This document shows, one piece after another, positions 2,448-62,486 of a stretch of 64,000 nucleotides of DNA. Under the pieces are notes generated by a model. That model had not been told where the DNA came from, did not search any database, and saw only the letters and a list, made by a program, of their open reading frames with translations. Positions within the stretch are counted from its first letter, which is position 1. Each line of letters opens with the position of its first letter. The position numbers and the translations under genes were made by a program. The stretch is from Coriobacteriales bacterium. GTDB lineage: Bacteria; Actinomycetota; Coriobacteriia; Coriobacteriales; UMGS124. The stretch is taken from assembly GCA_048173955.1 (NCBI GenBank), contig DBEYOB010000046.1, positions 12,413-76,412 on the forward strand, read 5' to 3'.

Positions 2448-3061
2448 AGTAATGGCCTTCCTTCCGTATTTCAATTTGCCTGTTGTCGTTGGCTATCACG
2501 GTGGCGGTCGATTGCGAAAACCTTTGCACCGGTTACGTTCGCCGCAGGAAGTGCATGCCGTGTCAGCCTGGCAACAGCATGGTTGTGAGTGGAGATTCGG
2601 TCACTAACCTATAGGGATGAACGCTGAGCGGAGTTGGATTGGACTGTTTGGTTGGTATTTTTTTGAACAAATTCAAGAAATAGCCGATGAACTGGGTTTT
2701 TAGACAAAAAGGATGAAAAGGTGTGTCATATGGACGCGGTTTTCCGCGTTCTCGGCATGAATGAAAATAGTTGGTCGCTACAATGGTTTCTAAGACAACG
2801 GTATCGCATAGCTGAGTGTGTGGCAAAGAGGATTGGCGGAGGGCCGACTGGTGGCGCAGACAGATTACTGGCAGGGCCGTTCTTTTGTCGGTGTGTTCAT
2901 TGGTTGCCTGAGTTTGGGAATGGTTTTCTGTTGGGCGTCGTGTGTCGCTGGGTCAGGAGGGATTCAGCAGGGTGTCGCAACTTTGTCCGGCATTTCGATC
3001 AATGGGGTGATGGCGAGCCAGAGCGACTTTCTGCTCAGGCTCATGGCCGGTCTTGCGCTTT

Positions 3062-7884: not shown

Positions 7885-7980
7885 GTGCGGGCTGACAGCT
7901 GTATAAAAAATGGAGAAAATTTCTAAAATGGAAAATATGATTTCCACTATGCAAATAGTTATACACCTGTCAGCCCGCAC
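7885..7980. repeat. Palindromic element: GTGCGGGCTGACAG / CTGTCAGCCCGCAC arms around a 68-bp AT-rich core
   Basis: The left arm is 7885-7898 and the right arm is 7967-7980. Both arms are extended outward by degenerate tandem copies of the same motif (GTGCGGGCTGG on the left, CAGCCCGCAC on the right). The arms match the terminal repeats of the elements at 25697, 27742, 29746 and 33524, but the core differs. Confidence 0.5.
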
Positions 7981-8042
7981 AGCCGCATGCGCACCCAGCC
8001 CGCACGGCCGCATGCGCGCCCGCCCCGCGCGGCCTCGCGCCC

Positions 8043-10300: not shown

Positions 10301-10793
10301 GCTCGAATCCTTTCCCAATCGGTTGCGGCATGCGGTCGCGCGTGGCCGGCGGGCTGGGCGGGCCGGGCGCCTGACTGGCGTCCGACGGGGTCCGGGTGCA
10401 CGTGCGGGAATCGGAGGCGCGGGACCCGAAAACGTGCGGCCCGAAACCGCGACCCGACGCCAGGAGTCCAGAGCCCGAAGGCGGGGCGATCCGCATGCCC
10501 TGCGGACGATGTCGATGATGGGGCGCGGGCCGCGGCTCGTGTATCCCATCGGGTTCGTGATTCACGCGATGACGGGAACCGATGGCAATTCACCACGGAG
10601 ATATGATGGCATGCGAGCAGGCATTTCAAGGTGCCGGCGGGTCGAAAGGGTCGCCGAACGTTCTCCGCGCGCGGATCGGCGGGGGTCGAGGCGAGGGGGC
10701 GGCAGGGGCGGTTGCGCGCGAACAGCGGGCGAACGGCGGACGGAGCCGCGCGGGAGGCGGATGGCAGTCAATGAAAATCAATAGCGAAAATAT

Positions 10794-16048: not shown

Positions 16049-16194
16049 GGCACGTGATTCTGCAGGTGAGGGGTGGACGTTTTGCGGCCGAGTGCGTGAT
16101 TCTGCAGGCGGTGATGGTCGTTTTGCGGCCGAGTGCGTGATTTCCAGAAAGTGATGGTCATTTTGCCACCGAATGCGTGCGGAAAATGGCCGCC
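16049..16194. repeat. Degenerate ~41-bp tandem array (about 3.6 units) forming the left part of the R1 element
   Basis: The units start at 16049, 16090, 16131 and 16171. Each begins G(A/C)(G/A)(T/C)GCGTG and ends GGTC(G/A)TTTTGC(G/C)(G/A)CC. Confidence 0.7.
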
Positions 16195-16360
16195 TACGGG
16201 TGCGGTTCGCTCTTGGCGGGTAGCGGCGGCTCGTCTACCAGGCATTTCGCTATGGGGTCAAGAATAAGAGGGGAGCACGCCTCCCTTTCCCGCACGCACT
16301 CGCTGGTTTTTTGACCGGTACTTTTCCGGAAACACGCACTCGGCTCCCGATTGACCACCG
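16131..16360. repeat. R1 repeat, copy A (230 bp), MITE-like with ~31-bp imperfect inverted ends
   Basis: It aligns base for base with 21700-21929 with only 3 mismatches (at 16200, 16227 and 16289). The inverted ends are CGAGTGCGTGATTTCCAGAAAGTGATGGTCA and TTGACCGGTACTTTTCCGGAAACACGCACTCGG. Confidence 0.9.
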
Positions 16361-21595: not shown

Positions 21596-21699
21596 CCGAG
21601 GGTAAGGGGACGGGTGGGCTGTGAGCCGACTGTGGCGAGTGCGGGCTGCCTATGGAGCGGATGCACGTGCCCACCGTTGGAGATGACCATTTTCGGCGC

Positions 21700-21929
21700 G
21701 AGTGCGTGATTTCCAGAAAGTGATGGTCATTTTGCCACCGAATGCGTGCGGAAAATGGCCGCCTACGGATGCGGTTCGCTCTTGGCGGGTAGCGGTGGCT
21801 CGTCTACCAGGCATTTCGCTATGGGGTCAAGAATAAGAGGGGAGCACGCCTCCCTTTCTCGCACGCACTCGCTGGTTTTTTGACCGGTACTTTTCCGGAA
21901 ACACGCACTCGGCTCCCGATTGACCACCG
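21700..21929. repeat. R1 repeat, copy B (230 bp), same orientation as copy A
   Basis: 227 of 230 positions are identical to 16131-16360. The flanks diverge immediately after CCACCG. Confidence 0.9.
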
Positions 21930-22143: not shown

Positions 22144-22191
22144 CTGCGCGCCTGCGCGCCTACGCGCCTGCGCGCCTACGCGCCTACGCGC
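22144..22191. repeat. Octanucleotide tandem repeat CCT(G/A)CGCG x 6
   Basis: Six contiguous 8-bp units were read directly from the sequence. The last unit overlaps the stop codon (22184-22186) of the flavoprotein gene. Confidence 0.7.
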
Positions 22192-23914
22192 CCGTGGCGG
22201 CGATGCGGCCGGCGCGGCGGGCGAACGTCGCGGAGCGGCCGGCGGCGAGGCCCGCCATCTGGTCGGGGTAGGTGTAGGCAAAGAAGCTGCCCGAGTCGTT
22301 GCCGCACACGTAGAGGCCCTCGATCAGGTTGCCCTCGGTGTCCAGGGCGTTCATGTTCTCGTCGATCTTGATGCCGTCCATGGTGCACAGCATGTAGCCG
22401 GTGTTGCGCACCCCGTAGAACGGCGCGGTGTCGACGGGCGACAGGCGGAACGGCTCCTTGCCGAAGTCGGGGTCCTCGCCGTTGGCGTAGTTCTCGTTGT
22501 TGCGCTCGACGGTGGCGACGAGGTTGTCGGCCGGGATGCCGAGCTTCTCGGCGAGCTCCTCGATGGTGTCGGCCTGCTGGATGAAGCCCTGCTCGATGAG
22601 GCCCTGGTTCATGGCCTTGGCCGTCTCCAGGTCGATGGCCGAGACCGGGGCGCCGTTCGTGAACGGGAACATGCGCGAGCAGCCCTGCGTCTTGAACTGG
22701 TACACGTAGTCCTCGAAGTTGGAGTCCCAGATGGTGGCGTAGGTGTGGCCCGGCTGGTCGATCGAGGCGTGGAGGATGAAGTCGTAGGGAGCGCTCTCGT
22801 TGGCAAAACGCTCGCCGTTGAGGTTGACCTTGAGCCAGGGCTGCGAGGACATCCAGAACATGCCGTTGACCATTTCCTCGCCGGCGATCATGTCGGGCAT
22901 GAGCGGGCAGCGGTCGAAGAGCATGCTCGTGTGGACCTCGTCGAAGGCCGCGCCGGCCCAGATGCAGGCCTTGATGCCGTCGCCCGTGGAACCCGGGATG
23001 CCCGAGTTGAACGAGAAGGTCAGCTTGGTCTCGGCCTGCAGGGCGCTCATCATGTCGTCGTTGAGCGCGTAGCCGCCTGTGCACACGAGCACGCCCTTGG
23101 CGGCGTTGACGCGCAGGTGGGCGCCCTCGGCGTCCTGGGCGACGATGCCGGTCACGCGGCCGGTCTCGTCCTGCTCGAGCTTGACCATGGCGGTGCTGTA
23201 GCGCACCTCCACGCCGAGCTCGGTGGCGTAGTCGATGAGCACGGCGCCGTCCTCGCTCGTGCGGCCGTCGGCCACGCAGGCGTGGCCCGTGGCCCAGTGG
23301 CGGTAGTTCATGATGTCGGCGTACTCGTCGAGGTCGTGGTCGGCGTCGTACATGAACTCGCGGCCGGCCTTGACGCACAGGTCGCCGTACCACTCGATGG
23401 CCTCGGCGCTCTCGTCGGCCCACAGGCGCAGCAGCTTGGTGTTGACGTTGGAGGCGGAGTACATCGTCATCTCGCGGCAGATGTCGGTGGCCTTGATGTC
23501 GCAGTCGTCTTCGAGCTGGTACTTGGTGCCGATGGCGCCGAGGGTGCCGCGGATGCCCGGGCTCGCCTCGTTCTTCTCGACGACGAGGACCTTGGCGCCG
23601 TTCTCGGCAGCGGTGCACGCGGCGAACAGGCCGGCGGTGCCGTAGCCCACCACGAGCACGTCGCACTCGAGGGTCTCGGCGATCTGGTCCTCGGCGACCT
23701 CGGGGGCCGTGCCGAGCCATGCGGGCACGTCGGCGTTTGCGGCGGCGGTTGACGTGCTGTCAGCGGAAGCCGCGCCGTCGGCCGCCGCGCCGTCGCCGGC
23801 GGTCTCGGCCGCCTCGTCGGCCAGGGCGACGGAGGCCGCCAGCGCCGTGCCGGCGGCAAGGGCTGCGGTGCCGGTCACGAAGCCGCGGCGGGTGAGCTTG
23901 TCCATCGTGTCCAT
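22184..23914 (-). CDS. Tat-exported FAD-dependent oxidoreductase (fumarate-reductase-like flavoprotein family)
   Basis: ORF 22184..24223, with the start at ATG 23912-23914 (GAAAGGAA upstream). It has the signal MDTMDKLTRRGFVTGTAALAAGTALAASVALA, the motif CDVLVVGYGTAGLFAA and a C-terminal GLYVCGNDSG motif. Confidence 0.85.
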   Translation of the reverse strand: MDTMDKLTRRGFVTGTAALAAGTALAASVALADEAAETAGDGAAADGAASADSTSTAAANADVPAWLGTAPEVAEDQIAETLECDVLVVGYGTAGLFAACTAAENGAKVLVVEKNEASPGIRGTLGAIGTKYQLEDDCDIKATDICREMTMYSASNVNTKLLRLWADESAEAIEWYGDLCVKAGREFMYDADHDLDEYADIMNYRHWATGHACVADGRTSEDGAVLIDYATELGVEVRYSTAMVKLEQDETGRVTGIVAQDAEGAHLRVNAAKGVLVCTGGYALNDDMMSALQAETKLTFSFNSGIPGSTGDGIKACIWAGAAFDEVHTSMLFDRCPLMPDMIAGEEMVNGMFWMSSQPWLKVNLNGERFANESAPYDFILHASIDQPGHTYATIWDSNFEDYVYQFKTQGCSRMFPFTNGAPVSAIDLETAKAMNQGLIEQGFIQQADTIEELAEKLGIPADNLVATVERNNENYANGEDPDFGKEPFRLSPVDTAPFYGVRNTGYMLCTMDGIKIDENMNALDTEGNLIEGLYVCGNDSGSFFAYTYPDQMAGLAAGRSATFARRAGRIAATGA

Positions 23915-25648: not shown

Positions 25649-25696
25649 GGGGAAGGGCCACCGAAGGGGGAGCCGCTGCATGTGGCTGTGCTGTAC

Positions 25697-25820
25697 GGCT
25701 GTGCGGGCTGACAGGTGTCTACTTTTCATGCATGTTGTAACTACAACATCCGCGAGCTGGGGTTTGTCGGAAAACCCTCAGCTTCTTTCAGAAAGTAGAC
25801 ATGCGTCAGCCCGCACAGCC
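25697..25820. repeat. R2 palindromic MITE-like element, copy b (124 bp)
   Basis: The ends GGCTGTGCGGGCTGACAGGTGTCTACTTT and AAAGTAGACATGCGTCAGCCCGCACAGCC form an inverted repeat of about 29 bp with 2 mismatches. Part of the core matches copies c to e (AAACCCTCAGC-TCTTTCAGAAA). Confidence 0.6.
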
Positions 25821-25960
25821 GTCTGAGGGGCGCTCACGGTCGGCCTTTTTGGCCAGGCAAGGGCCAAAACGCTGACACGGACCGGCAAAGCCTGCCGTTC
25901 TCATGGTTTGGATATTCGGGGCACTACTCGGTGTCGAGCCTCGTGCCTGCACCCCCACAA

Positions 25961-26003: not shown

Positions 26004-26055
26004 CGGGTGAGTTTTTCTTACCGGACGCCTTGCGCCTCCCGGCCCCGCGCTCGTC

Positions 26056-27540
26056 TTATGCCCGTGCCCCTCTGCCGCAGCAGTTCTTGTACTTTTTGCC
26101 GCTCCCGCAGGGGCACGGCTCGTTGCGGCCGACTTTGCGCACGGTGCCGTCGGGGTTGTAGAAGGTCTTTTGACCGGTCTCGCGCTCGTGGAGCTCCTGC
26201 TCGGACCAGCCGCACAGCTGCCAGGCGGGCAGGGCGTTGTAGAGGTTGGTCGCGAGCTGCACGAGGGCCTTGGGGTCGTCGGTGGCGTCCATGAGCCCCA
26301 TGTCCTCGAGGTCGCCGGGCAGCTCGGAGACCCGGGCGCCCGTGTAGAACAGCTCGAGGATGTCCTCCATCGTGCGGTCGGCGTAGGCGTAGTCGTCATC
26401 GTCGTCGGGGACGTGCTCGTCCAGGTAGTCGCGCAGGGCAACGGCCGCCGGCATGTCGTAGAAGCCGTCGAACGCGTCGTCGCACACCAGGCCGTCGAGG
26501 GGGCGCAGCTCGCGCTTTGCCTGCTGGGCGAGCAGGTAGTCGCGGTAGACGTCGAGGTCCTCGAGGGCGTCCGGGCCGGCAAAGGCGTCCGAAAGCATGA
26601 AGTCGACCAGGTAGATGCCCTTGTCGTCGTCGCGCTCGGTCAGATCGAAGCCGTAGTCGCCCGACAGGCCGCTGCGATAGACCGCCTCGGCGAAGTCGCC
26701 GGGCTGCAGGGGGTCGTCGGCGAGCGAGCAGTACTGCCGATAGGCTGCGTCGAGGTCGACGATGCCGTAGTAGGTCGTCGCGGTTTCGGCATATGCGACG
26801 GCTCCGGCGATCTTGGCCCGCTGGGCGCGCACGGCGTCGAGGTCGACGGCGCGGATCGCCGCGGCCAGCTCGTCGGGGACCGCCGCGGTGAACGTGTCGC
26901 CCTGCTTGAACAGGAAGATGTAGGGCGGCAGGGGGACGAGGTTCGCCGAGGAGAACACCTCGCCGTCCGCCAAGTCGTCGGGCCCAAACGAGAGGGGGCC
27001 CTTGTCGACGAGCCCGACGAGGAGCTCGAACTCGAGGTCGTCGAGGTTGAGCAGGTCGTAGGAGGTCTCGTCGGCAGCCCCCGCAATCTCGTCGGCGATG
27101 CGCTGCGCCAGGTCGCCCTTGTTGAGTTTCGAGATGCCCGTCAGCCCCATTCCGCGTGCAAGCTGCTCGAGCTTGGCCTTGGGGAAGAGCGCGAACGTCT
27201 CGGCGAGGCCGGATGTCGGGGCGTGGCCGAGTGCCTCCCCGTCGAGGTGGGCGAGTAGGTTCTGCCGCGCGTCATCGGAGCGGGTGTGGCCCGCGAATGC
27301 GCCCATCGCGTCGAAGTGTTCGTTGATTGCCCGTTCGCGTTCCTCGGAGGAGAGGCCCGCCAGCACCCCGCGGTGCCAGCTGGCCGAGGGGGCGGGGTTC
27401 GCCCCGCTCGCCCCGCGGGCCAAGTGGCCCATGTGGTCCACGCTCAGCCCGGCGTTTCGCCCGGCGATGCCCGCCTCGACGTCCGCCGGCGTGACACCCG
27501 GGAAGTAGAGCAGGTTGTTGTCGTCGAACGATGCCGCCAT
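26056..27540 (-). CDS. SEC-C metal-binding-motif protein of unknown function
   Basis: 494-aa ORF with GGAGG upstream. The C-terminus GRNEPCPCGSGKKYKNCCG is a SEC-C motif. The rest of the protein is acidic and has no motif I recognise. Confidence 0.75.
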   Translation of the reverse strand: MAASFDDNNLLYFPGVTPADVEAGIAGRNAGLSVDHMGHLARGASGANPAPSASWHRGVLAGLSSEERERAINEHFDAMGAFAGHTRSDDARQNLLAHLDGEALGHAPTSGLAETFALFPKAKLEQLARGMGLTGISKLNKGDLAQRIADEIAGAADETSYDLLNLDDLEFELLVGLVDKGPLSFGPDDLADGEVFSSANLVPLPPYIFLFKQGDTFTAAVPDELAAAIRAVDLDAVRAQRAKIAGAVAYAETATTYYGIVDLDAAYRQYCSLADDPLQPGDFAEAVYRSGLSGDYGFDLTERDDDKGIYLVDFMLSDAFAGPDALEDLDVYRDYLLAQQAKRELRPLDGLVCDDAFDGFYDMPAAVALRDYLDEHVPDDDDDYAYADRTMEDILELFYTGARVSELPGDLEDMGLMDATDDPKALVQLATNLYNALPAWQLCGWSEQELHERETGQKTFYNPDGTVRKVGRNEPCPCGSGKKYKNCCGRGARA

Positions 27541-27741
27541 GGGGACCTCCGGGTGTCTGCGGGTTGTCGGGCGCGTGTGCGATGCTTGCGTGATGCCTGT
27601 GCGATGCCGAGAAGTATAGCCGACCGGAGGCCGGGAGGTGTGCCGGCGATGTGCCGGCGCGAGGCCGGTAGGCGGCGGATGTGTGGGCTGGGGCTGCCCG
27701 CTGGAAACGGCTGTGCGGGCCGGTGGGCGGCCCGCTGGAAC

Positions 27742-27867
27742 GGCCGTGCGGGCTGACGGCTGTCTAATTTCTGAAAGAGGTTGAGGGTTTGGCGGAAAAA
27801 CCGCAGGTCGCGCTATCCCAACTTGAGGGTTTTCCGAAAAGTGAACACCCTGTCAGCCCGCACAGCC
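27742..27867. repeat. R2 palindromic MITE-like element, copy c (126 bp), followed by a 44-bp tandem duplication of its right end
   Basis: The ends are GGCCGTGCGGGCTGACGG and CTGTCAGCCCGCACAGCC. About 94 percent of positions are identical to copy d by eye. The right end plus flank is duplicated (27850-27893 and 27894-27930). Confidence 0.7.
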
Positions 27868-28074
27868 GTTTTGGGCTTGCACAGCCGCCAGCCCTGTCAG
27901 CCCGCACAGCCGTTTTGGGCTTGCACGGCCGTTCGGTCCGGCCCGCACAGCCGTCGGCTCGGCCCGGCTCGCGCAGCCGTTCGACCGTGGCCCGCTCCGC
28001 ATGGCCGCTCCGCATGCGCAGCCGCCGGTCCCCCCGCTCTCCCTTCTATCCTGCCCGCCTGTGTCCCTTTCGCC

Positions 28075-29544
28075 TCACCGTACCCGACGCAGCGCGTTGC
28101 CCCTTCCGGTTCCGGCGACTTTCTCGACGCGTCCGGTTGCGAGAAGCGTGTCGACGGCGTTGCGCAGTTTGGCGGATATGCCCTTGTATCCCAATGCGTG
28201 CGCGAGTTCGGTAAGCGAGAGGGGCTCTCCGTCGAGTGCCCGCAGGATGCCGTCGAGGTAGGAGCCATCGCCTCCGGGTGCCCTTTTCGGAAGGAACGCC
28301 GGATGTGCGGGTATGGTGACCGAGAGGAAGCCGCGGTTCTCGTCCATCTCGAAGACGGGCAGAGGCGAGCCGTTGCGTTCCAGTGCCTCGAACGCATTGG
28401 GAAAGCCGGTGTTGCGTCCTTCGATGAGGTGGAGCTCTTTCAAGAAGTCTCCGATGCGGCGGTTGCGGTAAACGCGGGCGCGGATGCGGCGGCGGGCGAT
28501 GGCCTCGTCGGTGATGCTGCGGTCGAAGCCCGGGAAGCTGGTTATTTCCATGGCCGAGGGTGTGATGCGCACCGTGACGGGTTCTGCAATCTGGTACGAG
28601 CGGTGATAGACCGCGTTGGAGAGGATCTCCTCGACGGCTCGGAAGGGGTAGTTGTACACGACGTCAGCCTCCGCCTTGTCGGGATGCTTGGTTGTCTGAC
28701 GCGCGATGACGTAGTTCTCGATGAAGGAGAGTGCGTCTTTGAGCTGGCGTTGGATTGGCCCTGTGAACGTCCTTTCGAGCATGTCGGCGCCGGTGGGGTT
28801 GGGGATGTCGACGATTTCGATTCGCGCGTAGCGGAAGTAACGCTCCGGGTGCTCGGAGAACATGAGGATGCCCACGTTGCGCGGATGGAGGTCTTCGGGT
28901 GGCCCTGACACGAGCTGCAGGTTCTCGGCGAGCTCGAGCAGCCCCATGGTTTCGGAATGCCGATAGAGGTCGCTTCCGACCTCTTTAAGGTGCTCACGGA
29001 TGAGGGCGGGACTGAGCGCGTCGATTGGGGCGAGCAGGTTGGGCCGGTCGTCGAAGGGGATGTCGCTCGATGCGTAGAAGAGCTCCTTCTCTTCTTGTGG
29101 GGATGCGACGATGGTGCTGCTGAATTTGCGGATGTAATAATGCTTCTCCGACTTCTGAGAGAGCACATCCTTAGATGCCTTGTAGGGCCGCCCGTGGCCG
29201 CCGGGCACCCAGATCACAATGATGTGGACCCCGTCGAAGAGCACGGGTTCGACAACGGGGTTGTAAAGCGGCTCGATGCAATGGCAAAGACCGACCAGGC
29301 GCTTGAGGATGCCGTCGATTCGTTCCGGCTCGATGCCCTTGGGGGGAAGAACGGGCATCCCGTCGCGTTCTTCGGCCCCGATAACAAGGTAGCCGCCTCC
29401 GATGTTGTCGATGTCGTTTGCAAAGGCGCAGATGGTGTGAATGACGGGCGTTGGGTTGAAATCGGCTTTGAACTCGATGCGCGACGATTCCACGACGTGG
29501 CCGTTGACGAGATCGCCGATGTTGACGGGTATTCCCATGGTCAT
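28075..29544 (-). CDS. AlbA_2/Schlafen-like DNA-binding domain protein with ATPase-like and C-terminal wHTH regions (COG2865-type putative regulator)
   Basis: 489-aa ORF with ESSRIEFKADFNPTPVIHTICAFANDIDNIGGGYLVIGAEERDG, an AlbA_2-type motif. It also has NAVYHRSY and IEGRNTGF, which are HATPase_c_4-like. An alternative start is ATG 29536-29538, with GGAG 6 nt upstream. Confidence 0.8.
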   Translation of the reverse strand: MTMGIPVNIGDLVNGHVVESSRIEFKADFNPTPVIHTICAFANDIDNIGGGYLVIGAEERDGMPVLPPKGIEPERIDGILKRLVGLCHCIEPLYNPVVEPVLFDGVHIIVIWVPGGHGRPYKASKDVLSQKSEKHYYIRKFSSTIVASPQEEKELFYASSDIPFDDRPNLLAPIDALSPALIREHLKEVGSDLYRHSETMGLLELAENLQLVSGPPEDLHPRNVGILMFSEHPERYFRYARIEIVDIPNPTGADMLERTFTGPIQRQLKDALSFIENYVIARQTTKHPDKAEADVVYNYPFRAVEEILSNAVYHRSYQIAEPVTVRITPSAMEITSFPGFDRSITDEAIARRRIRARVYRNRRIGDFLKELHLIEGRNTGFPNAFEALERNGSPLPVFEMDENRGFLSVTIPAHPAFLPKRAPGGDGSYLDGILRALDGEPLSLTELAHALGYKGISAKLRNAVDTLLATGRVEKVAGTGRGNALRRVR

Positions 29545-29563
29545 CTCCGCACAAGACGATGGT

Positions 29564-29605
29564 TTGTCGAGTCACTCGATAAGTATATATCGAGTGACTC
29601 GACAA
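29564..29605. promoter_or_regulatory. Perfect 18-bp-arm palindrome (candidate operator) 20 bp upstream of the AlbA_2 gene start
   Basis: TTGTCGAGTCACTCGATA (29564-29581) and TATCGAGTGACTCGACAA (29588-29605) are separated by the spacer AGTATA. Further ATCGAG copies lie at 29612, 29630 and 29648. Confidence 0.5.
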
Positions 29606-29745
29606 TATCTTATCGAGTCCGGAGGCCCCATCGAGTATGCAAGGTCCCATCGAGCGTGCAGGCGTTGCCGCAGAAATCGCGCCGACGGCCGTGCTGGCTG
29701 GTGGGCGGCCCGCCGGAACGGCCGTGCAGGCTGGTCGGGCCGAAC

Positions 29746-29871
29746 GGCTGTGTGGGCTGACAGCTGTCTACTTTCTGAAAGAGGTTGAGGGTTTGGTGGC
29801 AAAACCGCAGGTCGCGCTATCCCAACTTGAGGGTTTTCCGAAAAGTGAACACCCTGTCAGCCCGCACGGCC
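29746..29871. repeat. R2 palindromic MITE-like element, copy d (126 bp), same orientation as copy c
   Basis: The ends are GGCTGTGTGGGCTGACAG and CTGTCAGCCCGCACGGCC. Its core is essentially identical to that of copy c. Confidence 0.7.
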
Positions 29872-30168
29872 GCCGACCCGGCCCGCACGGCTGTTCGGCC
29901 ACCCGTCCGCGCGGCCGTCGGCCCGGCTCGCTCGCATGGCCGGTGCAGGCTGCCGTTCGCGGAAAACTCGCTCACCGAGCAAATTCGATGAACTAACTCA
30001 TTGAACAAATTCACCGAACCGATTATAGTGTGCACGTACCGCGAGAGGCATGAGGCGGCCGCAGGCGCGTTGCGGGATTGCCGGTGTCCCTCGGGGATCC
30101 CTGCAAGGGGATGTATCGAAACCAGGGAATTGCCCCGCGGAGGGGCAGCGAACGAGAGGGGATTTGCA

Positions 30169-31518
30169 ATGAAACTGAGCCGCCGCAACTTCCTGAAGAA
30201 CGCCGCAATGGGTACCGCGGCCGCCGCGGCCGCGAGTGTGGCCGCCAGCGCCGGTGTCGCGCTGGCCGACGAGGCCGCTGCGACTTCCGACCAGCTTGTC
30301 ATGCCCGACGTGCAGCAGGCGCTCAACACCGGAGCCGACGCCGCCGCCATCCAGTGGGCCGACCAGGCCGAGGTCGTCGTCGTGGGCTGCGGCTCGGGCG
30401 GTGCCCCCGCCGCAATCGAGGCCGCCCGCGCTGGCGCCGACGTGCTCGTCATCGAGAAGATGGACTGGCTCGGCGGCTGCATGCGCCGCTGCGGCGGCGG
30501 CCTCATGGGCTGCAACACGCTCGTCCAGCAGAAGCTCGGCATCGAGGACCCGGGCACCGACGTCCTCTACGACTACATGGCCGCCTGCGCCGGCAACCAC
30601 TACGACCCCGACCTGCTCCGCACGTACGTTGAGAACGCCGGTCCGTGCGTCGACTGGGTCATCACGCCCGTCGAGGAGGGCGGCCTGGGCGGCCAGCCCC
30701 TCGAGGAGTGGGAGCTCGGCCCCGAGGACGGCATGCAGGGCATCGTGTCGCCCGGCCTCAACGTGGGCGCCCCGAGCGACGTCGAGAACAACTACTGGGA
30801 GGAACTCGGCTTCGGCTCCGACATCGAGCACCGTCGCGTGCACTGGTTCAAGTCGAACCCTGAGGACGTCGACCCCGGCGACCGTCAGTACACCGCCTAC
30901 ACTGGCAACGACTTTGGCGCCGGCTACGGCTCGGTGGGCGGCGGCGGAACCGGCCTGTGGAAGCCGTTCGAGGACGAGCTCTACAACCTCGAGAACGTCC
31001 GCATCCAGATGGAGACCACCATCAAGGGCATCATCATGAACGCTAACGGCGAGGCCATCGGCGTGAGTGTGGCCCCCACCGCCGGCGGCGACGTCTACAA
31101 CATCAAGGCCACCAAGGCCGTGATCATCGCCACGGGCACCTTCGTGTGCGACAAGGAGATGTACGAGAACTTCACCGGCAAGCCCTGGACGTACGAGGAG
31201 GACCCGCGCTCCATCGTGAACGGTAGCCCCTACAACGACTACCAGGCCGACGGCGCCGGTGTCAAAGCCCTGCTCGCTGTGGGCGTCGCCCCGCGCTACA
31301 TCATCGAGGGCAACTCGGGCGGCATGCGCATCAACAGCAACGCCCAGGCCATCAACACCTACGGCGAGATCGTCCCGCGCCTCTACATCACCTCGCGCGC
31401 CGTGGGCGGTCTGTTCGCTGAGGACCACTACCCGCAGTGCGGCGTGTTCGTGACGTCGGGCATCGTCTTCGGCCGCATCGCCGGCATCAACGCCGCTGCG
31501 CTCCCGGCTTGGGAGTAG
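30169..31518 (+). CDS. Tat-exported FAD-dependent oxidoreductase (short, 449-aa member of the flavoprotein family)
   Basis: ORF 30001..31518, with the start at ATG 30169 (GAGAGGGGA upstream). It has the signal MKLSRRNFLKNAAMGTAAAAAASVAASAGVALA, the motif AEVVVVGCGSGGAPAA and a C-terminal RLYITSRAVGG motif. Confidence 0.85.
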   Translation: MKLSRRNFLKNAAMGTAAAAAASVAASAGVALADEAAATSDQLVMPDVQQALNTGADAAAIQWADQAEVVVVGCGSGGAPAAIEAARAGADVLVIEKMDWLGGCMRRCGGGLMGCNTLVQQKLGIEDPGTDVLYDYMAACAGNHYDPDLLRTYVENAGPCVDWVITPVEEGGLGGQPLEEWELGPEDGMQGIVSPGLNVGAPSDVENNYWEELGFGSDIEHRRVHWFKSNPEDVDPGDRQYTAYTGNDFGAGYGSVGGGGTGLWKPFEDELYNLENVRIQMETTIKGIIMNANGEAIGVSVAPTAGGDVYNIKATKAVIIATGTFVCDKEMYENFTGKPWTYEEDPRSIVNGSPYNDYQADGAGVKALLAVGVAPRYIIEGNSGGMRINSNAQAINTYGEIVPRLYITSRAVGGLFAEDHYPQCGVFVTSGIVFGRIAGINAAALPAWE

Positions 31519-31653
31519 GCGTTCTGCAGCAACGGGGGCGTGTCCGATGGGTTTGCTGACCGTCGGCGCCCCCGTTTCCGCGTGGTCGGCACCTGCCGGC
31601 GCAGTCGGCTGCCGGCCGCGCCCGGTTTGTTGGAGAAGAGGGAGCGTGTCCCC

Positions 31654-32619
31654 ATGAGTATCAACGCAACAGAATCAAGACGTCTCAGACTTGCGATATG
31701 CGCCGTCGGCGGCATGCTGGTGTTGGGGCTCGCCGGCGCGGCATGCGGCATGCGGGCGATTTCGAACGCATCGGCCGAGGAGGCCGCCCAGACCCCCGCC
31801 GTTGAAGCCGCCCCTGCCGCCGACGGGTCCTCGGCTGCCGAGACGGACACCCGCCCGCAGCTCACCCCGTCGAGCGCGACGTCGCAGGCGATTTCGGAGA
31901 ACCAGCCCATCAGCGGTAACATGACGCTTCCCGGTGGGGGTGCAGCTGCGGGTGCGGGGACGGGCGGCATGCCCCAGCTCGCCGCTACGAGCGAGGGCTC
32001 GCGTGCCAACCTTGAAGGCCTGCAGGACCTCTCCTACCTGGGAGATGCTGCCTCGCAGGCTTCGACCACTGCCGGCGCCGCGTCTTCGGCCGGCTCTTCG
32101 TCTGCGCCGACCCAGACCGCATCGGCGACCGAGGACATCACCGCGCTGGTGGGCGAGTCGTTCTCGATGGACGTGGACTGCACGCTGTGCCACACGAAGG
32201 AAATCGACAACATGCAGATCGAGGGCTTTACCGGCTACAACCACAAAGACCTCACCTGCATCATGTGTCACGACGATGAGGAGTCGCTGGCTGCCGCGCA
32301 CGAGGAGTACTCCGTCCGCCAGGCGACTCGCGTGGTCGCCCTCGTGAACACCACGGTCGACGAGGAGCTGTGCTTCTCGTGCCATGGCGACCGCGAGGCC
32401 CTGATTGCCGCCACCGCCGACTCGACCGTGCTTGTGGACGAGAACGGCACGCAGGTCAACCCTCACGACCTGCCTGCCGGCGACCAGCATGCCAGCATTA
32501 CCTGCGGCTCGTGCCACAAGATGCACAATGACCTGACGACCCAGCAGACGGCGCAAAACACGTGCCTCACCTGCCACCACGCCAACGTGTACGAGTGCAA
32601 CACCTGCCATGTTGCGTAA
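31654..32619 (+). CDS. Membrane-anchored multiheme cytochrome c (six CXXCH motifs)
   Basis: ORF 31540..32619, with the start at ATG 31654. It has the N-terminal TM helix LAICAVGGMLVLGLAGAAC and an Ala/Ser/Pro-rich linker. The heme motifs are CTLCH, CIMCH, CFSCH, CGSCH, CLTCH and CNTCH. Confidence 0.85.
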   Translation: MSINATESRRLRLAICAVGGMLVLGLAGAACGMRAISNASAEEAAQTPAVEAAPAADGSSAAETDTRPQLTPSSATSQAISENQPISGNMTLPGGGAAAGAGTGGMPQLAATSEGSRANLEGLQDLSYLGDAASQASTTAGAASSAGSSSAPTQTASATEDITALVGESFSMDVDCTLCHTKEIDNMQIEGFTGYNHKDLTCIMCHDDEESLAAAHEEYSVRQATRVVALVNTTVDEELCFSCHGDREALIAATADSTVLVDENGTQVNPHDLPAGDQHASITCGSCHKMHNDLTTQQTAQNTCLTCHHANVYECNTCHVA

Positions 32620-32765
32620 GGCCATGCGCGCGTGAGCCACGGCGCAGCAAGTCGTGGCGTCGCAGCGAGTTGTAGTGCGGGAATGTAATCCGCAACGCGA
32701 CCGTCGAAGCAGGCGGTCGCGTTGCGCTATCCTTGCCAGTGCCGCACGACAGAAAGGACGCCCCC

Positions 32766-33455
32766 ATGATGACCTCCCGACAGAAACGCGCCCAGCAGAC
32801 GCGCGCCAACCTGTTGGAGGTAGGTGCCCGGCTCATTGAGGAGCGGGGGTACGAGAGCGTCTCCATCAAGGACATCGTGGAGGCGGCGGGTGTGTCGGTC
32901 GGCACGTTCTACCATTACTTCGACTCGAAGGGCGTGCTCTACTACGCCTACATCGACCAGTACTTCGTATCGCTGCGGGAGGGCCTGGTCAACAACATGG
33001 ACCGTCCGCCTCTCGAGAATCTGGGGCTGTATGTCGACGGCCTGCTCGAGACAATCGAAACGGCGGGGCCTGAGTACGTGTCGCATTGGTTGAGCCATAC
33101 GGCCGACGCGGAGTATCACCGGCAGATTGGCTACGAAGGCGATGTGAGCCTTATCCACGCATCGCACATCCGCGACTGCATCGACGCGTACGTCGAGCGC
33201 GGGGTGCTGAGACCCGGTGTGCGTTCGGCGGTGATCGCCGAGACGGTCATGACGTTGTTCTACGGCATCGACGTGCGCTACTGCATGAGCGGCGGGACGC
33301 TCTCGCTTGAGGCGTGGGGTCGCAACATCAAGTCGTTCCTCTACAAGAACATCGTGCCGTTCATGGCGGAGCCGCCTGCGGAGTCTCCGCACGACTATGA
33401 CCCCGATGTCTATCTGGACACGGGCGAGGATGGGCCGGGCGTCGCGCAGCCCTGA
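32766..33455 (+). CDS. TetR/AcrR-family transcriptional regulator
   Basis: ORF 32733..33455, with the start at ATG 32766 (GAAAGGA upstream). The N-terminal HTH is RANLLEVGARLIEERGYESVSIKDIVEAAGVSVGTFYHYFDSK. Confidence 0.85.
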   Translation: MMTSRQKRAQQTRANLLEVGARLIEERGYESVSIKDIVEAAGVSVGTFYHYFDSKGVLYYAYIDQYFVSLREGLVNNMDRPPLENLGLYVDGLLETIETAGPEYVSHWLSHTADAEYHRQIGYEGDVSLIHASHIRDCIDAYVERGVLRPGVRSAVIAETVMTLFYGIDVRYCMSGGTLSLEAWGRNIKSFLYKNIVPFMAEPPAESPHDYDPDVYLDTGEDGPGVAQP

Positions 33456-33523
33456 GATGCATGCGGGCCGGCGGGCGATCCACCGGAACGGCTGTGCGGG
33501 CTGGTGGGCGGCCCGTTGGAAAC

Positions 33524-33649
33524 GGCTGTGCGGGCTGACAGGGCGTTCACTTTTCGGAAAACCCTCAAGTTGGGATAGCGCGACCTGCGGTTTTGTCACC
33601 AAACCCTCAGCCTCTTTCAGAAATTAGACAGCTGTCAGCCCGCACAGCC
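33524..33649. repeat. R2 palindromic MITE-like element, copy e (126 bp), inverted relative to copies c and d
   Basis: It is the reverse complement of the copy c/d core, flanked by GGCTGTGCGGGCTGACAG and CTGTCAGCCCGCACAGCC. Confidence 0.7.
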
Positions 33650-33914
33650 GTCAGCTCAGCCCGCACGGCCGTTCGGCCCGGCCCGCACAGCCGTCAGCCC
33701 GGCCCGCCCGACCTCCGGTCTGCAGGTGGGCCATGCGGCCAGCCGTCGCCGGAGGTGCCTCGCCTTCCGGCGGCATTTTCTGGACGGCAGGGTCTTCAGG
33801 GCGGCCCTTATGCCATCATATGGCGCATGGGCGACCCGGCCGCCGCCATCGCTGCCCTGGCGCCCGGATTGTCCTGCTGCACGCGTCCGCGCACGAGGAG
33901 AGGAAGCGACCCCT

Positions 33915-35066
33915 ATGACCGATACGACCGCCGCATCGGAGAGCGCCCCCATGAAGCGCTTCGGTTTCGGCTGCATGCGCCTGCCGGTGACCGACGAGAA
34001 CGACCAGACCACGTTCGACATGCCCCAGATCGAGCAGATGGTCGACGAGTTCCTCGCCGCCGGCTTCACCTACTTCGACACCGCCTACATCTACCACGGC
34101 CGCGAGGGCGAGAACGCCGTGCGCCGCGCGCTCGTCGAGCGCCACCCGCGCGAGGCGTTCGTGCTGGCCGACAAGCTCCCCACGATGTCGCTCAAGGAAG
34201 AGGGCGACCAGGAGCGCATCTTCGAGGAGCAGCTGGCCAAGTGCGGCGTGGAGTACTTCGACTACTACCTGCTGCACCACCTGGGCGGCCTGTTCTACAA
34301 GAACGCCGCCAAGTTCGACTCCTTCTCGTTCATCCGCCGGCTCAAGGAGGAGGGCAAAGTCCGCAACATCGGCTTCTCCTACCACCACGACCCGGCCTTC
34401 CTCGACCAGCTGCTGACCGAGCATCCCGAGGTCGACTTCGTGCAGCTGCAGATCAACTACCTCGACTGGGAGGACCCGGCCGTCCAGTCGCGCGCCTGCT
34501 GGGAGATCGCGCGCAAGCACGGCAAGCCGATTGTGGTCATGGAGCCCGTCAAGGGCGGCGGCCTGTCGCAGCTTCCCCCCGAGGCCGTCGAGCTGCTGCG
34601 CGAGGCCGACCCGGACGCCTCGCCCGCGTCGTGGGCCCTGCGCTTCGCGGCCGGCGTCGAGGGCGTGATGATGGTGCTGAGCGGCATGTCGACCATCGAC
34701 CAGCTGCGCGACAACGTCGCCACGATGGGCGACTTCAAGCCGCTGACCGACGACGAGCACGCCCTGCTGCGCGCGGTGGCCGACATCGTGCACAACCAGA
34801 CGGTCGTGCCCTGCACGGCGTGCCGCTACTGCGTCGACTCCTGCCCCAAGGGCATCGCCATCCCCGAGTACTTCGCGCTGCTCAACGCTGACAAGCGCAT
34901 GGTGAGCCAGGGCTTCTCCACGCAGCGCATCTTCTACCGCAACCTCATGAACGCCCACGGCAAGGCGTCGGAGTGCATCGGGTGCCGCCGCTGCGAGCGT
35001 ATGTGCCCGCAGGGCATCCACATCCCCGAGGAGCTCAAGAAGGTCGTTGCTGCGTTCGAGGGGTAG
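33915..35066 (+). CDS. Aldo/keto reductase with C-terminal 4Fe-4S dicluster domain
   Basis: ORF 33726..35066, with the start at ATG 33915 (AGGAGAGGAAG upstream). The AKR motifs are FGFGCMRLP and FDTAYIYHGREGE. The C-terminal Cys clusters are CTACRYCVDSCP and CIGCRRCERMCP. Confidence 0.85.
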   Translation: MTDTTAASESAPMKRFGFGCMRLPVTDENDQTTFDMPQIEQMVDEFLAAGFTYFDTAYIYHGREGENAVRRALVERHPREAFVLADKLPTMSLKEEGDQERIFEEQLAKCGVEYFDYYLLHHLGGLFYKNAAKFDSFSFIRRLKEEGKVRNIGFSYHHDPAFLDQLLTEHPEVDFVQLQINYLDWEDPAVQSRACWEIARKHGKPIVVMEPVKGGGLSQLPPEAVELLREADPDASPASWALRFAAGVEGVMMVLSGMSTIDQLRDNVATMGDFKPLTDDEHALLRAVADIVHNQTVVPCTACRYCVDSCPKGIAIPEYFALLNADKRMVSQGFSTQRIFYRNLMNAHGKASECIGCRRCERMCPQGIHIPEELKKVVAAFEG

Positions 35067-46028: not shown

Positions 46029-48104
46029 GTGTTCATGCGGAACCAAGCTCAGCTGGTCGAAGAGCTCTCCAAGGTGCGCGGGGCCATCCCCCTGCCCGCG
46101 TCCCTGACGCGCCGCGGCTTCGTCGCCGGTGCGGCAGGTATGGCCGCTGCCGCCGTCGCAGGCGGCGCGGCCTCCGCCCTGGCCGAAGAGGCCGCCCCCG
46201 CCGAGGGCGCGCCTGCCGAGACGCCCGCCGAAGACGCCGCTGCGGCACCTGCCGCCGCTGCCGGTATGGCGTTTTCCGGCAACGAGGGCAAAACGATGGG
46301 TGAGGTCCTGGGTGCCGGCTGGCTCGGGGAGGAGCCCGAGATCCCGGCCGATCAGATCTCCGAGACCATCGACACCCAAATCGTGGTGTGCGGCGCCGGC
46401 CACGCCGGCACGGCGTGCGCCCGCAAGGCTGCCGAGCTCGGCGCGCAAGTCGTCGTCGTCGACCCCCAGACCGAGGAGAACTTCATGGTCCTCGGCAACG
46501 ACGTGGGCCACCTCAACTCCTCGTGGCAGACGGAAACCTGCGGCGTGCCGCGCTACGACGAGACCGAGTTCATGAACGAGTACCAGATCTATTGCGCCGG
46601 CCGTGCCCAGCCCAAGCTGGTGCGCGACTTTGCCTACCGCTCGGGCGAGGCGTTCGACTGGTTCATCGACAACTTCACCGATGAGGAGAAGGCCGGCATC
46701 GTCTGCCTCAACTGGCCGGTCACCGAGGGCTACAGCTACAAGAAGGGCATCTTCACCTCCTACGTGGGCACGCCCAACTTCGGCGGCGGCGTGGGCCTGC
46801 AGGAGGCCGTGATCCGCACCCAGCAGATCGCCAAGGATGCCGGCGCGCAGTTTATGTACGAGACCAAGGCCGTGCGCCTGGTCCACAGCGACGACGGCAC
46901 CGAGGTCACCGGCGTCATCTGCGAAAAGGGCGACGGCACCTACGTGCAGATCAACGCCCAGGCTGTGGTTTTGGCCTGCGGCGACATCGGTGCCAACTCC
47001 CCGATGTACAACGCCATCTGCGCTGAGAACTACGCGCTCGGCGAGTATCGCGACTGCTCGGCCATGAGCGGGCGCGACGGCAGCGGCATCGCCATGGCCA
47101 TGCGCATCGGCGCCAAGGTCGAGATCGGCACCGGCGGCGACATGGGCAGCCACGCCTCGTTCCCGCTCGGCCCGATGGAGGGCGCCGAGACCATCTGGCT
47201 CAACAAGTACGGCAAGCGCTTCTGCAACGAAGCCTACGGCGGACCGCTCCTCTCCGGTTGCGCCACTGCCCGCCAGCCCGGCAGCATCATCTACAGCGTG
47301 TGGGATTCCGACTGGAAGACCGTGCTGCTCAACCAGATTGCCGGCCACCTCGCACTCAAGAACTGGGACGAGGAGAGCGTCGAGAAGATCGGCGGCTACA
47401 TGGAGGCCGCGATCGGCTCGGGCGCCGAGGGCGACGACACCTCGGGCAAGTACCTCTACTGCGCCGACACCCTCGAGGAGCTCTTCGAGTACATGGGCAT
47501 GCAATAGGGCGTGGCCGCCAACGCCCTGGCCGAGATCGAGGCCTGGAACGCGGCGCGCGAGGCGGGCGTGGACACCGAGTTCGGCCGCGACCCCGAGATG
47601 CTGTGGCCCATCGCCACGCCGCCGTTCTACGGCTTTGTGGGTGACAAGCGCGTGGGCGGCGGCTCGCTCGTTGCGACGTCGGGCCTGCTGTGCACCGGAG
47701 ACCAGCAGGTTCAGGGCCAAGGCTTCGAGCCTATCAAGGGCCTCTACGCCACGGGCAACTGCTGCGGCGGGCGCTTCCCCATGGGCTACAACGGCATCAT
47801 GAACGGCGTGTCCATCGGCATGTGCCTCACGCTGGGCATGACGCTCGGTGAGTTCCTGGCTACCGGCGACCTCGATGCGGCCACCACGCTCGGCCTCAAC
47901 AACGCCGCGCCCAAGCAGTCTGCCAATGGTATGGGCCCCGGCCCGATGCCCGGAGGCGACGGTGCTGAGGGCAAGGGCGCCGAGGGTGAGGGCGCCCCTG
48001 CTGGGGACGCTCCCGCCGAGGGCGGTGAGGCGCCGGCCGCCGAGGGCGAGGCTCCTGTCGAGGGCGAGGGCGCTGCCGCTCCCGTCGAGGATGCTGTCGA
48101 GTAA
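46029..48104 (+). pseudogene. Tat-exported FAD-dependent oxidoreductase interrupted by an in-frame TAG at 47505-47507
   Basis: ORFs 46029..47507 and 47511..48104 are in the same frame, separated only by TAG-GGC. The upstream part has LTRRGFVAGAAGMAAAAVA and TQIVVCGAGHAGTACA. The downstream part retains the conserved PPFYGF and GLYATGNCCGG motifs. The start is GTG 46029 or ATG 46035. Confidence 0.7.
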
Positions 48105-62400: not shown

Positions 62401-62486
62401 GGCAATGCACCTTTCTGAAGGGTGCCCGGCGCGGCGGCGTGCCCGCATCGCCGCGCCGGGCGTCTGGTTGGGGTCGGATCTGCGCG

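Follow-up and report, generated by a model that had tools for sequence, protein, structure and literature searches.

The window (the whole 64,000-nt stretch of DNA that was analysed) contains a 2.1-kb segment that we explain, with moderate confidence in the explanation as a whole, as a self-contained gene block within a strain-variable Eggerthellaceae stretch from an uncultured, gut-type actinobacterium, reshuffled by recombination at copies of a short repeat, R2. Under the same explanation, R2 is a lineage-specific family of ~130-bp elements, and the single gene of the block, which brings along a promoter and an operator of its own, encodes a prokaryotic Schlafen of the 'Schlatpase-HTH' type, with an SLFN nuclease, a GHKL ATPase and a C-terminal winged helix. 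Blocks are probably gained, lost and re-joined by ordinary recombination, not by the gene jumping by itself. A sequence-only reading had proposed a single-gene cassette moved or captured by a pair of MITEs; this reading is partly supported, in that the block structure looks real, but no sign of single-gene transposition was found.

The Schlafen gene is flanked by two R2 copies in the same orientation, copy c (27738..27868, plus strand), between its 3' end and the 5' end of the SEC-C gene, and copy d (29742..29872, plus strand), between the divergent Schlafen and flavoprotein genes. A direct count gives 124/131 identical positions, BLAST gives 94.7% identity (E=1e-55), and a repeat search reports the pair as 131 nt at 95% with a spacing of 2004, in agreement with the first estimate of ~94 percent. 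The repeat had been described as a 126-bp palindromic element; it is real and measures 131 nt, but its palindromic symmetry is restricted to terminal inverted repeats of ~21-24 nt (ACGGCYGTGCGGGCTGAC.. and ..GTCAGCCCGCACRGCCG in copy c), which enclose a non-palindromic core of ~85 nt. Similarity between c and d runs ~30-60 nt past the 131 nt, into flanking arrays of the 13-nt motif CGGCYGTGCGGGC. Every R2 copy is embedded in such arrays, with 2-6 extra end-derived copies of the motif per side, in opposite orientation on either side of the core. The composite around c spans 27676..27985, with three forward motifs on the left (at 27676, 27708 and 27741) and six reverse ones on the right (27856-27967); a 44-nt tandem duplication of the right end (27848-27887 / 27892-27931) is part of the right-hand array. 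The composite around d spans 29686..29942 (forward motifs at 29686, 29719 and 29745; reverse at 29860, 29881, 29905 and 29930).

Copy e (33523..33651, minus strand) is 94.6% identical to c and lies between the 3' end of a TetR gene and the 5' end of an aldo-keto reductase gene, at the right edge of the flavoprotein block (30169..33455, plus strand: an FAD_binding_2 reductase at 30169-31518, a multihaem cytochrome c at 31654-32619 and TetR at 32766-33455). Compared with c and d, its core runs the other way round, and the left/right layout of its flanking motif arrays is unchanged. Copy a (25696..25822, minus strand), between convergent LuxR and SEC-C genes, is diverged (73.5% to c) and inverted, with 31-nt inverted ends and a core of which one half is related to that of c and the other half is different. 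A relative at 7885..7985 (plus strand) has the same terminal repeats and flanking arrays around an unrelated AT-rich core. In the 8 kb around the Schlafen gene, one R2 copy lies in each between-block gap. This clustering is only nominally significant by a hand calculation (~0.005 for this run of gaps, ~0.1 for any run). The c/d pair does enclose one gene, as proposed; since copies e and a exist, however, the flavoprotein operon, bounded by d and e, and the SEC-C gene (26056..27540, minus strand; 494 aa with a C-terminal SEC-C motif, the anchor for our locus comparison) are bracketed as well, and the c/d pair is not special.

R2 fits a MITE in size and form (~130 bp, non-coding, multi-copy, with terminal inverted repeats). 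Rfam gave no match at the R2 elements between 24 and 35 kb; a symR match at 32668-32728 is far under threshold. A promoter scan found no sigma-70-like site within any R2 core, and its 'terminator-like' matches at R2 ends are the inverted ends themselves. Exact searches with the core 24-mer CCCAACTTGAGGGTTTTCCGAAAA returned nothing from the contigs of 185,579 species-representative genomes, nor from JGI metagenome contigs and viral contigs, and to judge from these searches R2 occurs only in a lineage that those collections lack. The gapped end pattern GGGCTGACN{70,98}GTCAGCCCGCAC gave, among the matches listed for genome contigs, single and apparently chance occurrences in unrelated high-GC taxa. 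The right-end 19-mer had six matches in metagenome contigs, two of them true family members (L119 and L121) and four that look like chance; further R2 copies are present on L005, L010, L112 and L118 as well as on these two.

Between c and d, only one ORF has a coding signature (28075-29544, minus strand), so that the segment does hold a single gene. The ORF reaches 29544 and the gene was first given as 489 aa, but the likely start is taken as 29538 because GGAG sits 6 nt upstream; the gene is then 28075..29538 (minus strand) and its product 487 aa, the same as called in other assemblies. Its lower GC had been noticed by eye and is borne out, at 61.0% where the window as a whole has 66.8% and the two neighbours have 68.7% and 67.5%, with a GC3 of 0.78 against 0.90-0.92 in the neighbours. 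The gene is compositionally foreign and, under the explanation given above, was acquired horizontally, to judge from this composition and from its homologues. It has >4,800 protein homologues, the best 120 of which are 65-76% identical and include entries from Adlercreutzia, Oscillospiraceae and Bacteroides. For homologues at other loci (L113-L117), DNA identity (71-77%) is limited to the coding sequence, the contexts are unrelated, and an R2 element is never present. A scan of viral contigs for close protein relatives gave no match, and NCBIfam has no model for the protein.

Both of the domains that had been suggested for the protein score above their Pfam cut-offs: SLFN_AlbA_2 (PF04326) has 47.7 bits over residues 19-144 (gathering score 25.3 bits), and downstream of it HATPase_c_4/GHKL (PF13749) has 37.5 bits over residues 322-404 (cut-off 26 bits). 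According to PMC13056530, the Schlafen RNase has Ex4(E/D)xK as its catalytic motif; Ex4ExK is intact here (ESSRIEFK; E19, E24 and K26), and these three residues together with E306 and N310 are invariant across 26 homologues. E306xxxN310A may be the ATP-binding N-box. Residues 426-487 form three helices and a beta-hairpin in the AF2 model (pLDDT ~81-89), for which Foldseek retrieves the winged helices of MarR, histone H1 and Z-alpha (probability 0.97-1.0, rmsd 2-4 A); Pfam reports no HTH in the protein, and we assign the C-terminal region (~426-487) as a predicted winged helix. A profile built from the homologues weakly matches the AlbA_2 protein 2kyy and SLFN14. The best full-length match is DIP2311 of Corynebacterium diphtheriae (PDB 3lmm; Foldseek E=6.5e-12, profile E=1e-4), a structural-genomics entry of no known function, which is only 16-17% identical and is consistent with the same overall architecture.

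The same combination, SLFN_AlbA_2 with Ex4ExK, a GHKL ATPase and a C-terminal HTH, is described in PMC13056530 (pSlfn HisKinase-HTH class) and bioRxiv 10.64898/2026.05.29.728809 (small 'Schlatpase'-HTH), and is the commonest prokaryotic Schlafen architecture. The pSlfn HisKinase-HTH family is likewise widespread and horizontally exchanged; the HisKinase-type fusions that were tested in E. coli (PMC13056530) are outside the two reported as protective, and no member of the HisKinase-HTH architecture has a demonstrated function. The conserved dual palindromic operator described below is not mentioned in the passages of either paper that were consulted.

That operator had also been proposed from the sequence, and it holds up well, being conserved upstream of homologues elsewhere. 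It lies at 29564..29605 and is a perfect palindrome of 18-nt arms and a 6-nt spacer, reading TTGTCGAGTCACTCGATA - TATACT - TATCGAGTGACTCGACAA on the gene's strand; the spacer is similar to a -10 box. The operator core GTCGAGTSACTCGA has no other mismatch-free occurrence in the window. Upstream of the palindrome, three extra ATCGAG half-sites (at 29612, 29630 and 29649, within 29612..29654) are spaced 18-19 nt apart, and similar CTCGAY half-sites are found in homologues. The homologues L113-L117 retain the operator motif TTGTCGAGTsACTCGACAA despite their unrelated contexts. This conservation predicts autoregulation by the C-terminal winged helix, which would bind the two palindromic sites flanking the -10-like TATACT and so repress its own gene. 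An Rfam mir-1271 'match' was rejected, as it is merely the operator palindrome.

Proteins of this kind had been noted as frequent in defence or abortive-infection contexts. The neighbours within 10 kb encode LuxR, TetR and LysR regulators, flavoprotein reductases, cytochrome c, aldo-keto reductase, ETF and a molybdopterin oxidoreductase, and PADLOC, run on the Schlafen gene and its SEC-C neighbour only, gave no full-length system match and no stand-alone defence model. A location near known defence genes, seen for 69.6% of pSlfn genes but not obligatory, is not found at this locus, where no defence island is recognisable, and the defence context appears weak from its gene content. The partial PADLOC matches (residues 121-415) arise because a Schlafen + GHKL supradomain is shared with SLFN-pAgo (RzAgo) and with the Argonaute-associated SIR2/Schlafen proteins of PADLOC. 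Unlike SLFN-pAgo, the window protein has no Argonaute, SIR2 or APAZ part; if it has a sensor at all, either the winged helix or the ATPase would serve as one. In RzAgo, tetramer formation is driven by ATP binding and enables tRNA cleavage. By analogy with SLFN-pAgo and the tested pSlfn proteins, the Schlafen protein may oligomerise on ATP, and its Schlafen domain would cleave tRNA when triggered.

Related metagenome contigs fall into four arrangements around the Schlafen gene. Haplotype A (the window, L003 and L112) has both the Schlafen and the flavoprotein blocks; B (L005) also has both, with a right-hand neighbour that differs from that of A; C (L010, L011 and L012) has neither, and its LuxR-524 and SEC-C genes are separated by a single R2 copy; and D (L118) has the Schlafen block without the flavoprotein block, which is thus missing from the haplotypes of both L010 and L118. 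Three samples gave independent assemblies of haplotype C, and L112, with fragmented gene calls and a 'contig_' name, suggests a long-read assembly; short-read contigs stop inside R2, as expected for a multi-copy repeat. In L118 the flank upstream of the Schlafen gene is joined through one R2 copy to that of the aldo-keto reductase, the latter 98.9% identical to the window, but haplotype D is one scaffold, in which the link from Schlafen to SEC-C spans a 10-N gap inside copy c, and repeats can cause metagenome mis-joins. Copy c of L118 was considered as core-deleted and rejected, the scaffold gap being what is there instead.

All contigs with the gene at this locus carry R2, so that conserved synteny in relatives lacking the repeats was not seen. 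The polymorphisms among relatives are a 5.7-kb two-block difference (C vs B) and, in D vs A, a missing flavoprotein block; in none of the related contigs is the Schlafen block the sole difference from the window. Junctions lie in R2 copies or their arrays for 3/4 of the structural differences around the Schlafen gene. Those of A vs B and D vs A are at the ends or arrays and not in the longer core, a placement that plain homologous recombination does not predict. The breakpoint between the window and L112, at 26054, is away from any R2 element, and a separate 240-nt repeat (16122-16360 / 21690-21929) marks another block swap. The 240-nt repeat is built similarly to R2.

L010 and L112 are 99-100% identical just past the SEC-C gene and differ in block content, which suggests that the change is recent. 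The R2 copy of L010 equals the SEC-C-side copy of L005 at 7/9 informative sites up to position 54 and the far-side copy of L005 at 5/5 informative sites from position 58 (Fisher p=0.01-0.02, from 14 informative sites only and between lineages that differ). The single copy in the 'empty' haplotype thus looks chimeric, which points to a homologous crossover inside R2, and we infer homologous rather than site-specific recombination. Selection on R2 was considered from the 93% L010 copy beside a 76%-identical SEC-C gene, and was rejected because the 5' half of the SEC-C gene is hypervariable among strains and the flanking DNA of the same contigs is 99-100% identical.

Correia elements, ERIC, REP/BIME and REPINs are non-coding, intergenic, multi-copy sequences of ~100-150 bp with hairpin-capable inverted ends, and serve as substrates for rearrangement. 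R2 is like them in size, in its intergenic non-coding copies, in its inverted ends and in its role in rearrangement, and unlike them in that it has no target-site duplication, no transposase or RAYT known as a partner (the window showed no gene of Y1/RAYT type), end-motif arrays at every copy, and subfamily cores that are mosaic or unrelated. If R2 were no more than an abundant repeat between genes, of REP/BIME or Correia type, with a possible role as terminator, insulator or protein-binding site, the bracketing would be incidental, with the Schlafen gene having arrived independently and the contig differences reflecting general recombination among paralogues or assembly chimeras. We consider this unlikely, though it deserves some weight: the five R2 copies in the window occupy 5 of ~25 intergenic gaps, some beside non-foreign genes; the region is rich in paralogous LuxR and flavoprotein genes; and the breakpoint at 26054, the swap at the 240-nt repeat and the scaffold gap in L118 all fit as well. 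It accords poorly with the three of four differences that join in R2 copies or arrays, with the independent recovery of C and the long-read-looking contig behind A, and with the chimeric copy, which is what recombination at R2 predicts. A transposase encoded elsewhere might instead recognise the inverted ends of c and d and move the Schlafen gene as a cassette. Exactly one foreign-looking gene does lie between two direct copies that are 95% identical and have inverted ends, R2-bounded blocks do vary among strains, and the sub-terminal arrays at both ends resemble the arrays of transposase-binding sites of Tn7-, Mu- and Tn402-type elements, but we regard such a composite unit as improbable. On the aligned ends, no target-site duplication is visible by eye outside the c/d pair or around single copies; what stands beside the ends differs from one side to the other in c, in e and in the copies of L005, d alone has a possible CCGA duplication, and the flanks of the copies are end-motif arrays. 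No cognate transposase with R2 ends was found in the 64-kb window, whose sole transposase, an IS3-family gene (2721-4481), was rejected as a partner since its ends and flanks are unrelated. Homologues elsewhere lack R2, an indel of the gene alone was not seen, and the crossover within the core of the 'empty' haplotype's copy fits homologous exchange, not transposition. What survives of the MITE-pair cassette is the variation of R2-edged blocks among strains, and what is not supported is the transposition of a single gene.

Like MITE-flanked composites and integron cassettes, the R2 copies are imperfectly symmetrical sites of ~130 bp that separate strain-variable blocks; unlike these, they have no flanking duplication, integrase or attC cores, and carry the crossover signature inside the core. 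That R2 copies are the sites of a site-specific recombinase, forming an integron-like cassette array or an invertible core that switches promoter direction, seems very improbable to us. The L005 layout, element-block-element-block-element with all copies in one orientation, would suit this reading, as would a size and imperfect dyad symmetry that recall chromosomal attC, an in-place inversion of the copy e core compared with L005 (both flanking arrays being retained), the two junctions at ends or arrays, and the fact that c, d and e turn the same core end to a gene start ~200-260 nt away. Against it, a scan of the larger ORFs in the 64-kb window turned up no tyrosine or serine recombinase; the R2 ends read ACGGCYGTG.../...CACRGCCG and by eye lack the attC core sites (RYYYAAC / GTTRRRY), with no AAC/GTT cores; the blocks come with promoters and regulators of their own and in mixed orientations; the promoter scan detected no sigma-70-like promoter within the core; and the crossover of the chimeric copy falls inside it. 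An integron/attC identity was rejected on the absence of a recombinase domain in the larger ORFs and of attC cores, and on the self-regulated blocks facing both ways. A bolder reading, to which we give little credence, makes R2 and the 240-nt repeat the dedicated joints of an Eggerthellaceae chromosomal block-exchange system, in which a recombinase or transposase reads the motif arrays, moves blocks and flips the core. If it were true, inducible reductase operons and immunity genes such as this Schlafen gene would be inserted, excised and re-ordered, and a core flip might switch an adjacent gene.

In the preferred explanation, homologous recombination at R2, the copies are 91-97% alike and so serve as portable homology. 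A crossover between two direct copies would remove a block, or bring a circle that had been excised back in; at the inverted ends, exchange would join new neighbours or flip the core. Strains would in this way come to differ in their mix of Schlafen block, flavoprotein block and right-hand context. Eggerthellaceae are gut bacteria whose LuxR-controlled flavoprotein reductases, which convert drugs and dietary compounds, form large sets that vary from strain to strain. The locus would represent a concrete way to reshuffle these reductase sets, with short, near-identical intergenic elements as the recombination joints between blocks, and a horizontally acquired Schlafen-type gene slotted into the same block structure. 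Its operator, travelling across unrelated genomic contexts, may offer a testable handle on the commonest class of prokaryotic Schlafen.

Copies c (27738-27868) and d (29742-29872) of R2, an intergenic repeat element of ~130 bp, lie in the same orientation at a spacing of 2004 nt and align gap-free over 131 nt with 124 identities (95%, BLAST E=1e-55); the repeat pair is genuine and far beyond chance, as the sequence-only reading had judged by eye at about 94%. That reading also called the element palindromic, which holds for its ends, terminal inverted repeats of ~21-24 nt (ACGGCYGTGCGGGCTGAC... / ...GTCAGCCCGCACRGCCG), and fails for its core of ~85 nt, which is asymmetric with a small internal hairpin. 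Nor is the pair special to the Schlafen gene that it brackets: copy e (33523-33651) has its core inverted (94.6% identity), copy a (25696-25822) is inverted and diverged (73.5%), with one core half related and the other not, and an element at 7885-7985 carries R2-type terminal repeats and flanking motif arrays around an unrelated AT-rich core (CTGTATAAAAAATGGAGAAAATTTCTAAAATGG...).

Every R2 copy is surrounded by arrays of a 13-nt motif derived from the ends, CGGCYGTGCGGGC, with 2-4 forward units on the left and 2-6 reverse units on the right (70 matches in the window vs 25.6 in Markov shuffles). Element and arrays together, ~200-300 nt overall, make up a nested imperfect hairpin (z=-5.5 for the DNA fold). 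The window has ~25 intergenic gaps that measure 100 nt or more; five of them contain an R2-type element, and these include all four gaps that separate blocks between 25.6 and 33.9 kb, in the order LuxR / a / SEC-C / c / Schlafen / d / flavoprotein-cytochrome c-TetR / e / aldo-keto reductase. The core end that faces a gene start ~200-260 nt away is the same one in c (SEC-C), d (Schlafen) and e (aldo-keto reductase). R2 had no match in 185,579 species-representative genomes, JGI metagenomes (searched by core) or viral contigs, and a search with the end sequences brought up two more family members with other core halves, on contigs L119 and L121. Contig L119 (OMNT01038116.1, element at about 300-540; inverted ends ~35 nt) is orthologous to window site a, at the 3' end of the LuxR gene, but the core of its element differs: half of it resembles the left half of copy c and the rest is unrelated. 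R2 cores appear to be mosaic among strains at one site. R2 is a MITE/REP-like family that is specific to this lineage and has not been described before; its build is somewhat unusual.

Relatives of the locus, all metagenome contigs, were recovered with the SEC-C gene (26056-27540, minus strand) as anchor and fall into four arrangements. Haplotype A (window, L003, L112) reads SEC-C / c / Schlafen / d / flavoprotein block (30169-33455) / e inverted / aldo-keto reductase; the fragmented gene calls and 'contig_' name of L112 suggest a long-read assembly. Short-read contigs routinely end inside R2. Haplotype B (L005) is as A, with the third copy direct and then LuxR-524 and a flavoprotein. Haplotype C (L010, L011, L012; three samples) has LuxR-524 / one element / SEC-C, the Schlafen and flavoprotein blocks being absent. 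Haplotype D (L118), a single scaffold with a 10-N gap within copy c, reads SEC-C / c / Schlafen / one element / aldo-keto reductase, without the flavoprotein block, and its reductase flank matches window 33656-35065 at 98.9% identity. Across these contigs the Schlafen and flavoprotein blocks are separable, with R2 copies as block edges. No contig lacked the Schlafen gene alone; synteny without the repeats, which would have refuted the sequence-only reading, was not found at the locus. Directly past the SEC-C gene L010 and L112 are 99-100% identical despite their different block content, and sequence identity of this order suggests that the change was recent.

The SEC-C gene is itself hypervariable: between L010 (4984-6462) and L112 (9242-10735) its 5' half is 60-78% and its 3' half 85-95% identical, and the 99-100% identity sets in directly past the stop codon. 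Alleles share 95, 88, 74, 68 or 56% protein identity, L118 has two of them, and the protein has a family match in its C-terminal SEC-C motif only. Within a few kb of it, L010 (12102-13136) and L112 (16376-17080) also have a HipA_C toxin-kinase gene, in haplotypes whose right-hand context is unlike that of the window.

The single R2 copy in haplotype C looks chimeric by its informative sites, matching the SEC-C-side copy of L005 at 7/9 up to position 54 and the far-side copy at 5/5 from position 58 (Fisher p=0.01-0.02), which is the expectation for a homologous crossover inside the core. Such a crossover would delete the segment between direct copies or insert an excised circle. Exchange between inverted ends also seems to occur, because at this site the core of e points one way in A and the other way in B (orthologous copy at L005 3934-4063), and the alignment still extends across the TetR-side flank and the motif arrays of both sides. 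The D junction falls within the R2 right end or its array; 2/3 junctions are at R2 ends or arrays, a position that plain homologous recombination does not predict.

The sequence-only reading had proposed a single-gene cassette moved or captured by a MITE pair, and this is supported in part, by the block edges at R2 and the separable blocks. Composite transposition of the Schlafen gene by the R2 pair is less favoured, since neither loss of the gene alone nor, by eye, target-site duplications at aligned R2 ends were found, and the window holds no transposase with R2-matching ends, its sole transposase being of the IS3 family. An integron-like system is likewise less favoured, with no recombinase among the larger ORFs scanned in the window and no attC-type core sites seen by eye in R2. 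Repeat-mediated homologous recombination is therefore favoured over both, and recombination between R2 copies at dispersed sites best accounts for the cassette-like layout.

A second repeat family is present at 16122-16360 and 21690-21929 (direct, ~240 nt, 98% identical). Its build is R2-like, with arrays of a GATGGTC..TTTTGC..GAGTGCGTG unit on one side and the inverse (CACGCACTCGG..GATTG.CCACC) on the other. Between the two copies lies a 5.3-kb LysR-molybdopterin oxidoreductase-Fer4-NarJ block, which in L005 is replaced by a flavoprotein and LuxR block between the same repeats.

Between c and d only one ORF has a coding signature (28075-29544, minus strand), in line with the single gene read there earlier; its probable start is 29538, the second ATG, which has GGAG six bases upstream and gives a product of 487 aa that is also called in other assemblies. 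Its GC content (61.0%) is indeed below that of its two neighbours (68.7%/67.5%) and of the window (66.8%), with GC3 of 0.78 vs 0.90-0.92. Both anticipated Pfam domains were found, SLFN_AlbA_2 (residues 19-144, 47.7 bits) and HATPase_c_4 (residues 322-404, 37.5 bits); NCBIfam has no model for the protein. The Schlafen RNase motif Ex4(E/D)xK, as described in PMC13056530, is present as E19-SSRI-E24-F-K26; 26 homologues keep its E19, E24 and K26 without exception, together with E306 and N310 of the ATPase domain. AlphaFold2 (mean pLDDT 69, with poor prediction of the N-terminal domain) models the C-terminal module confidently as three helices plus a hairpin, which Foldseek matches to the winged helices of MarR, histone H1 and Z-alpha; the whole protein matches uncharacterised DIP2311 (3lmm, E=6.5e-12). 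By these domains, the motif and the winged-helix match, the protein therefore belongs to the pSlfn 'HisKinase-HTH' class as PMC13056530 outlines it, put there at 19.2% of prokaryotic Schlafens. The same class is the small 'Schlatpase' with C-terminal HTH of bioRxiv 10.64898/2026.05.29.728809, in whose account it is the majority form of the SLFN + GHKL supradomain.

A defence role had been raised for such proteins. PADLOC returned partial matches alone, to Argonaute-associated profiles (residues 121-415), because the Schlatpase module is common to this protein and SLFN-pAgo; neither of the two pSlfn genes that PMC13056530 reports as protective is among the HisKinase fusions tried in E. coli. 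The family is very large and has a wide spread: the homologue search gave >4,800 matches, and the best 120, at 65-76% identity, include entries from Adlercreutzia, Oscillospiraceae and Bacteroides. The gene is a further member of a known, very common Schlafen-ATPase-HTH class, and on present evidence the locus is no new kind of system.

The gene does have a palindromic operator of its own, as had been noticed, at 29564-29605 (perfect 18-nt arms, 6-nt spacer). Two operator sites in the window flank TATACT, which is -10-box-like, and the core motif has no other mismatch-free occurrence in the 64-kb window. Homologues of 71-77% DNA identity occur in unrelated contexts on five contigs (L113-L117), adjoined by PIN and HTH genes in L113, a DUF3945 topoisomerase in L114 and L115 and a glycosyltransferase in L117. 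R2 is absent from all five and their likeness to the window ends at the start codon, yet each has two TTGTCGAGTsACTCGACAA-like palindromes and CTCGAY half-sites directly upstream. The operator thus accompanies the Schlafen gene across these contexts, and the natural inference is that the winged helix would autorepress through it.

The host belongs to Eggerthellaceae; its PFOR shares ~81% identity with the PFORs of Gordonibacter, Eggerthella and Paraeggerthella. The IS3-family transposase ORF (2721-4481; HTH_21 and rve; NCBIfam transpos_IS3, 176.8 bits) has no clear terminal inverted repeats nearby and no likeness to R2 ends. A Uma2-family putative restriction endonuclease gene (59194-59742), whose GC3 (0.69) is the lowest of the gene calls checked, may likewise have been acquired. 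The 64 kb contain at least 10 FAD_binding_2 flavoprotein reductase genes (among them 726-2474, 8552-10549, 22184-23914, 30169-31518, 46029-47507, 56908-58611, 60559-62676 and 62487-63962), together with LuxR, TetR and LysR regulators and a multihaem cytochrome c; the window is a typical Eggerthellaceae accessory-reductase landscape. Within it, the R2 locus bears on Eggerthellaceae genome plasticity and offers a handle on Schlatpase-HTH regulation.
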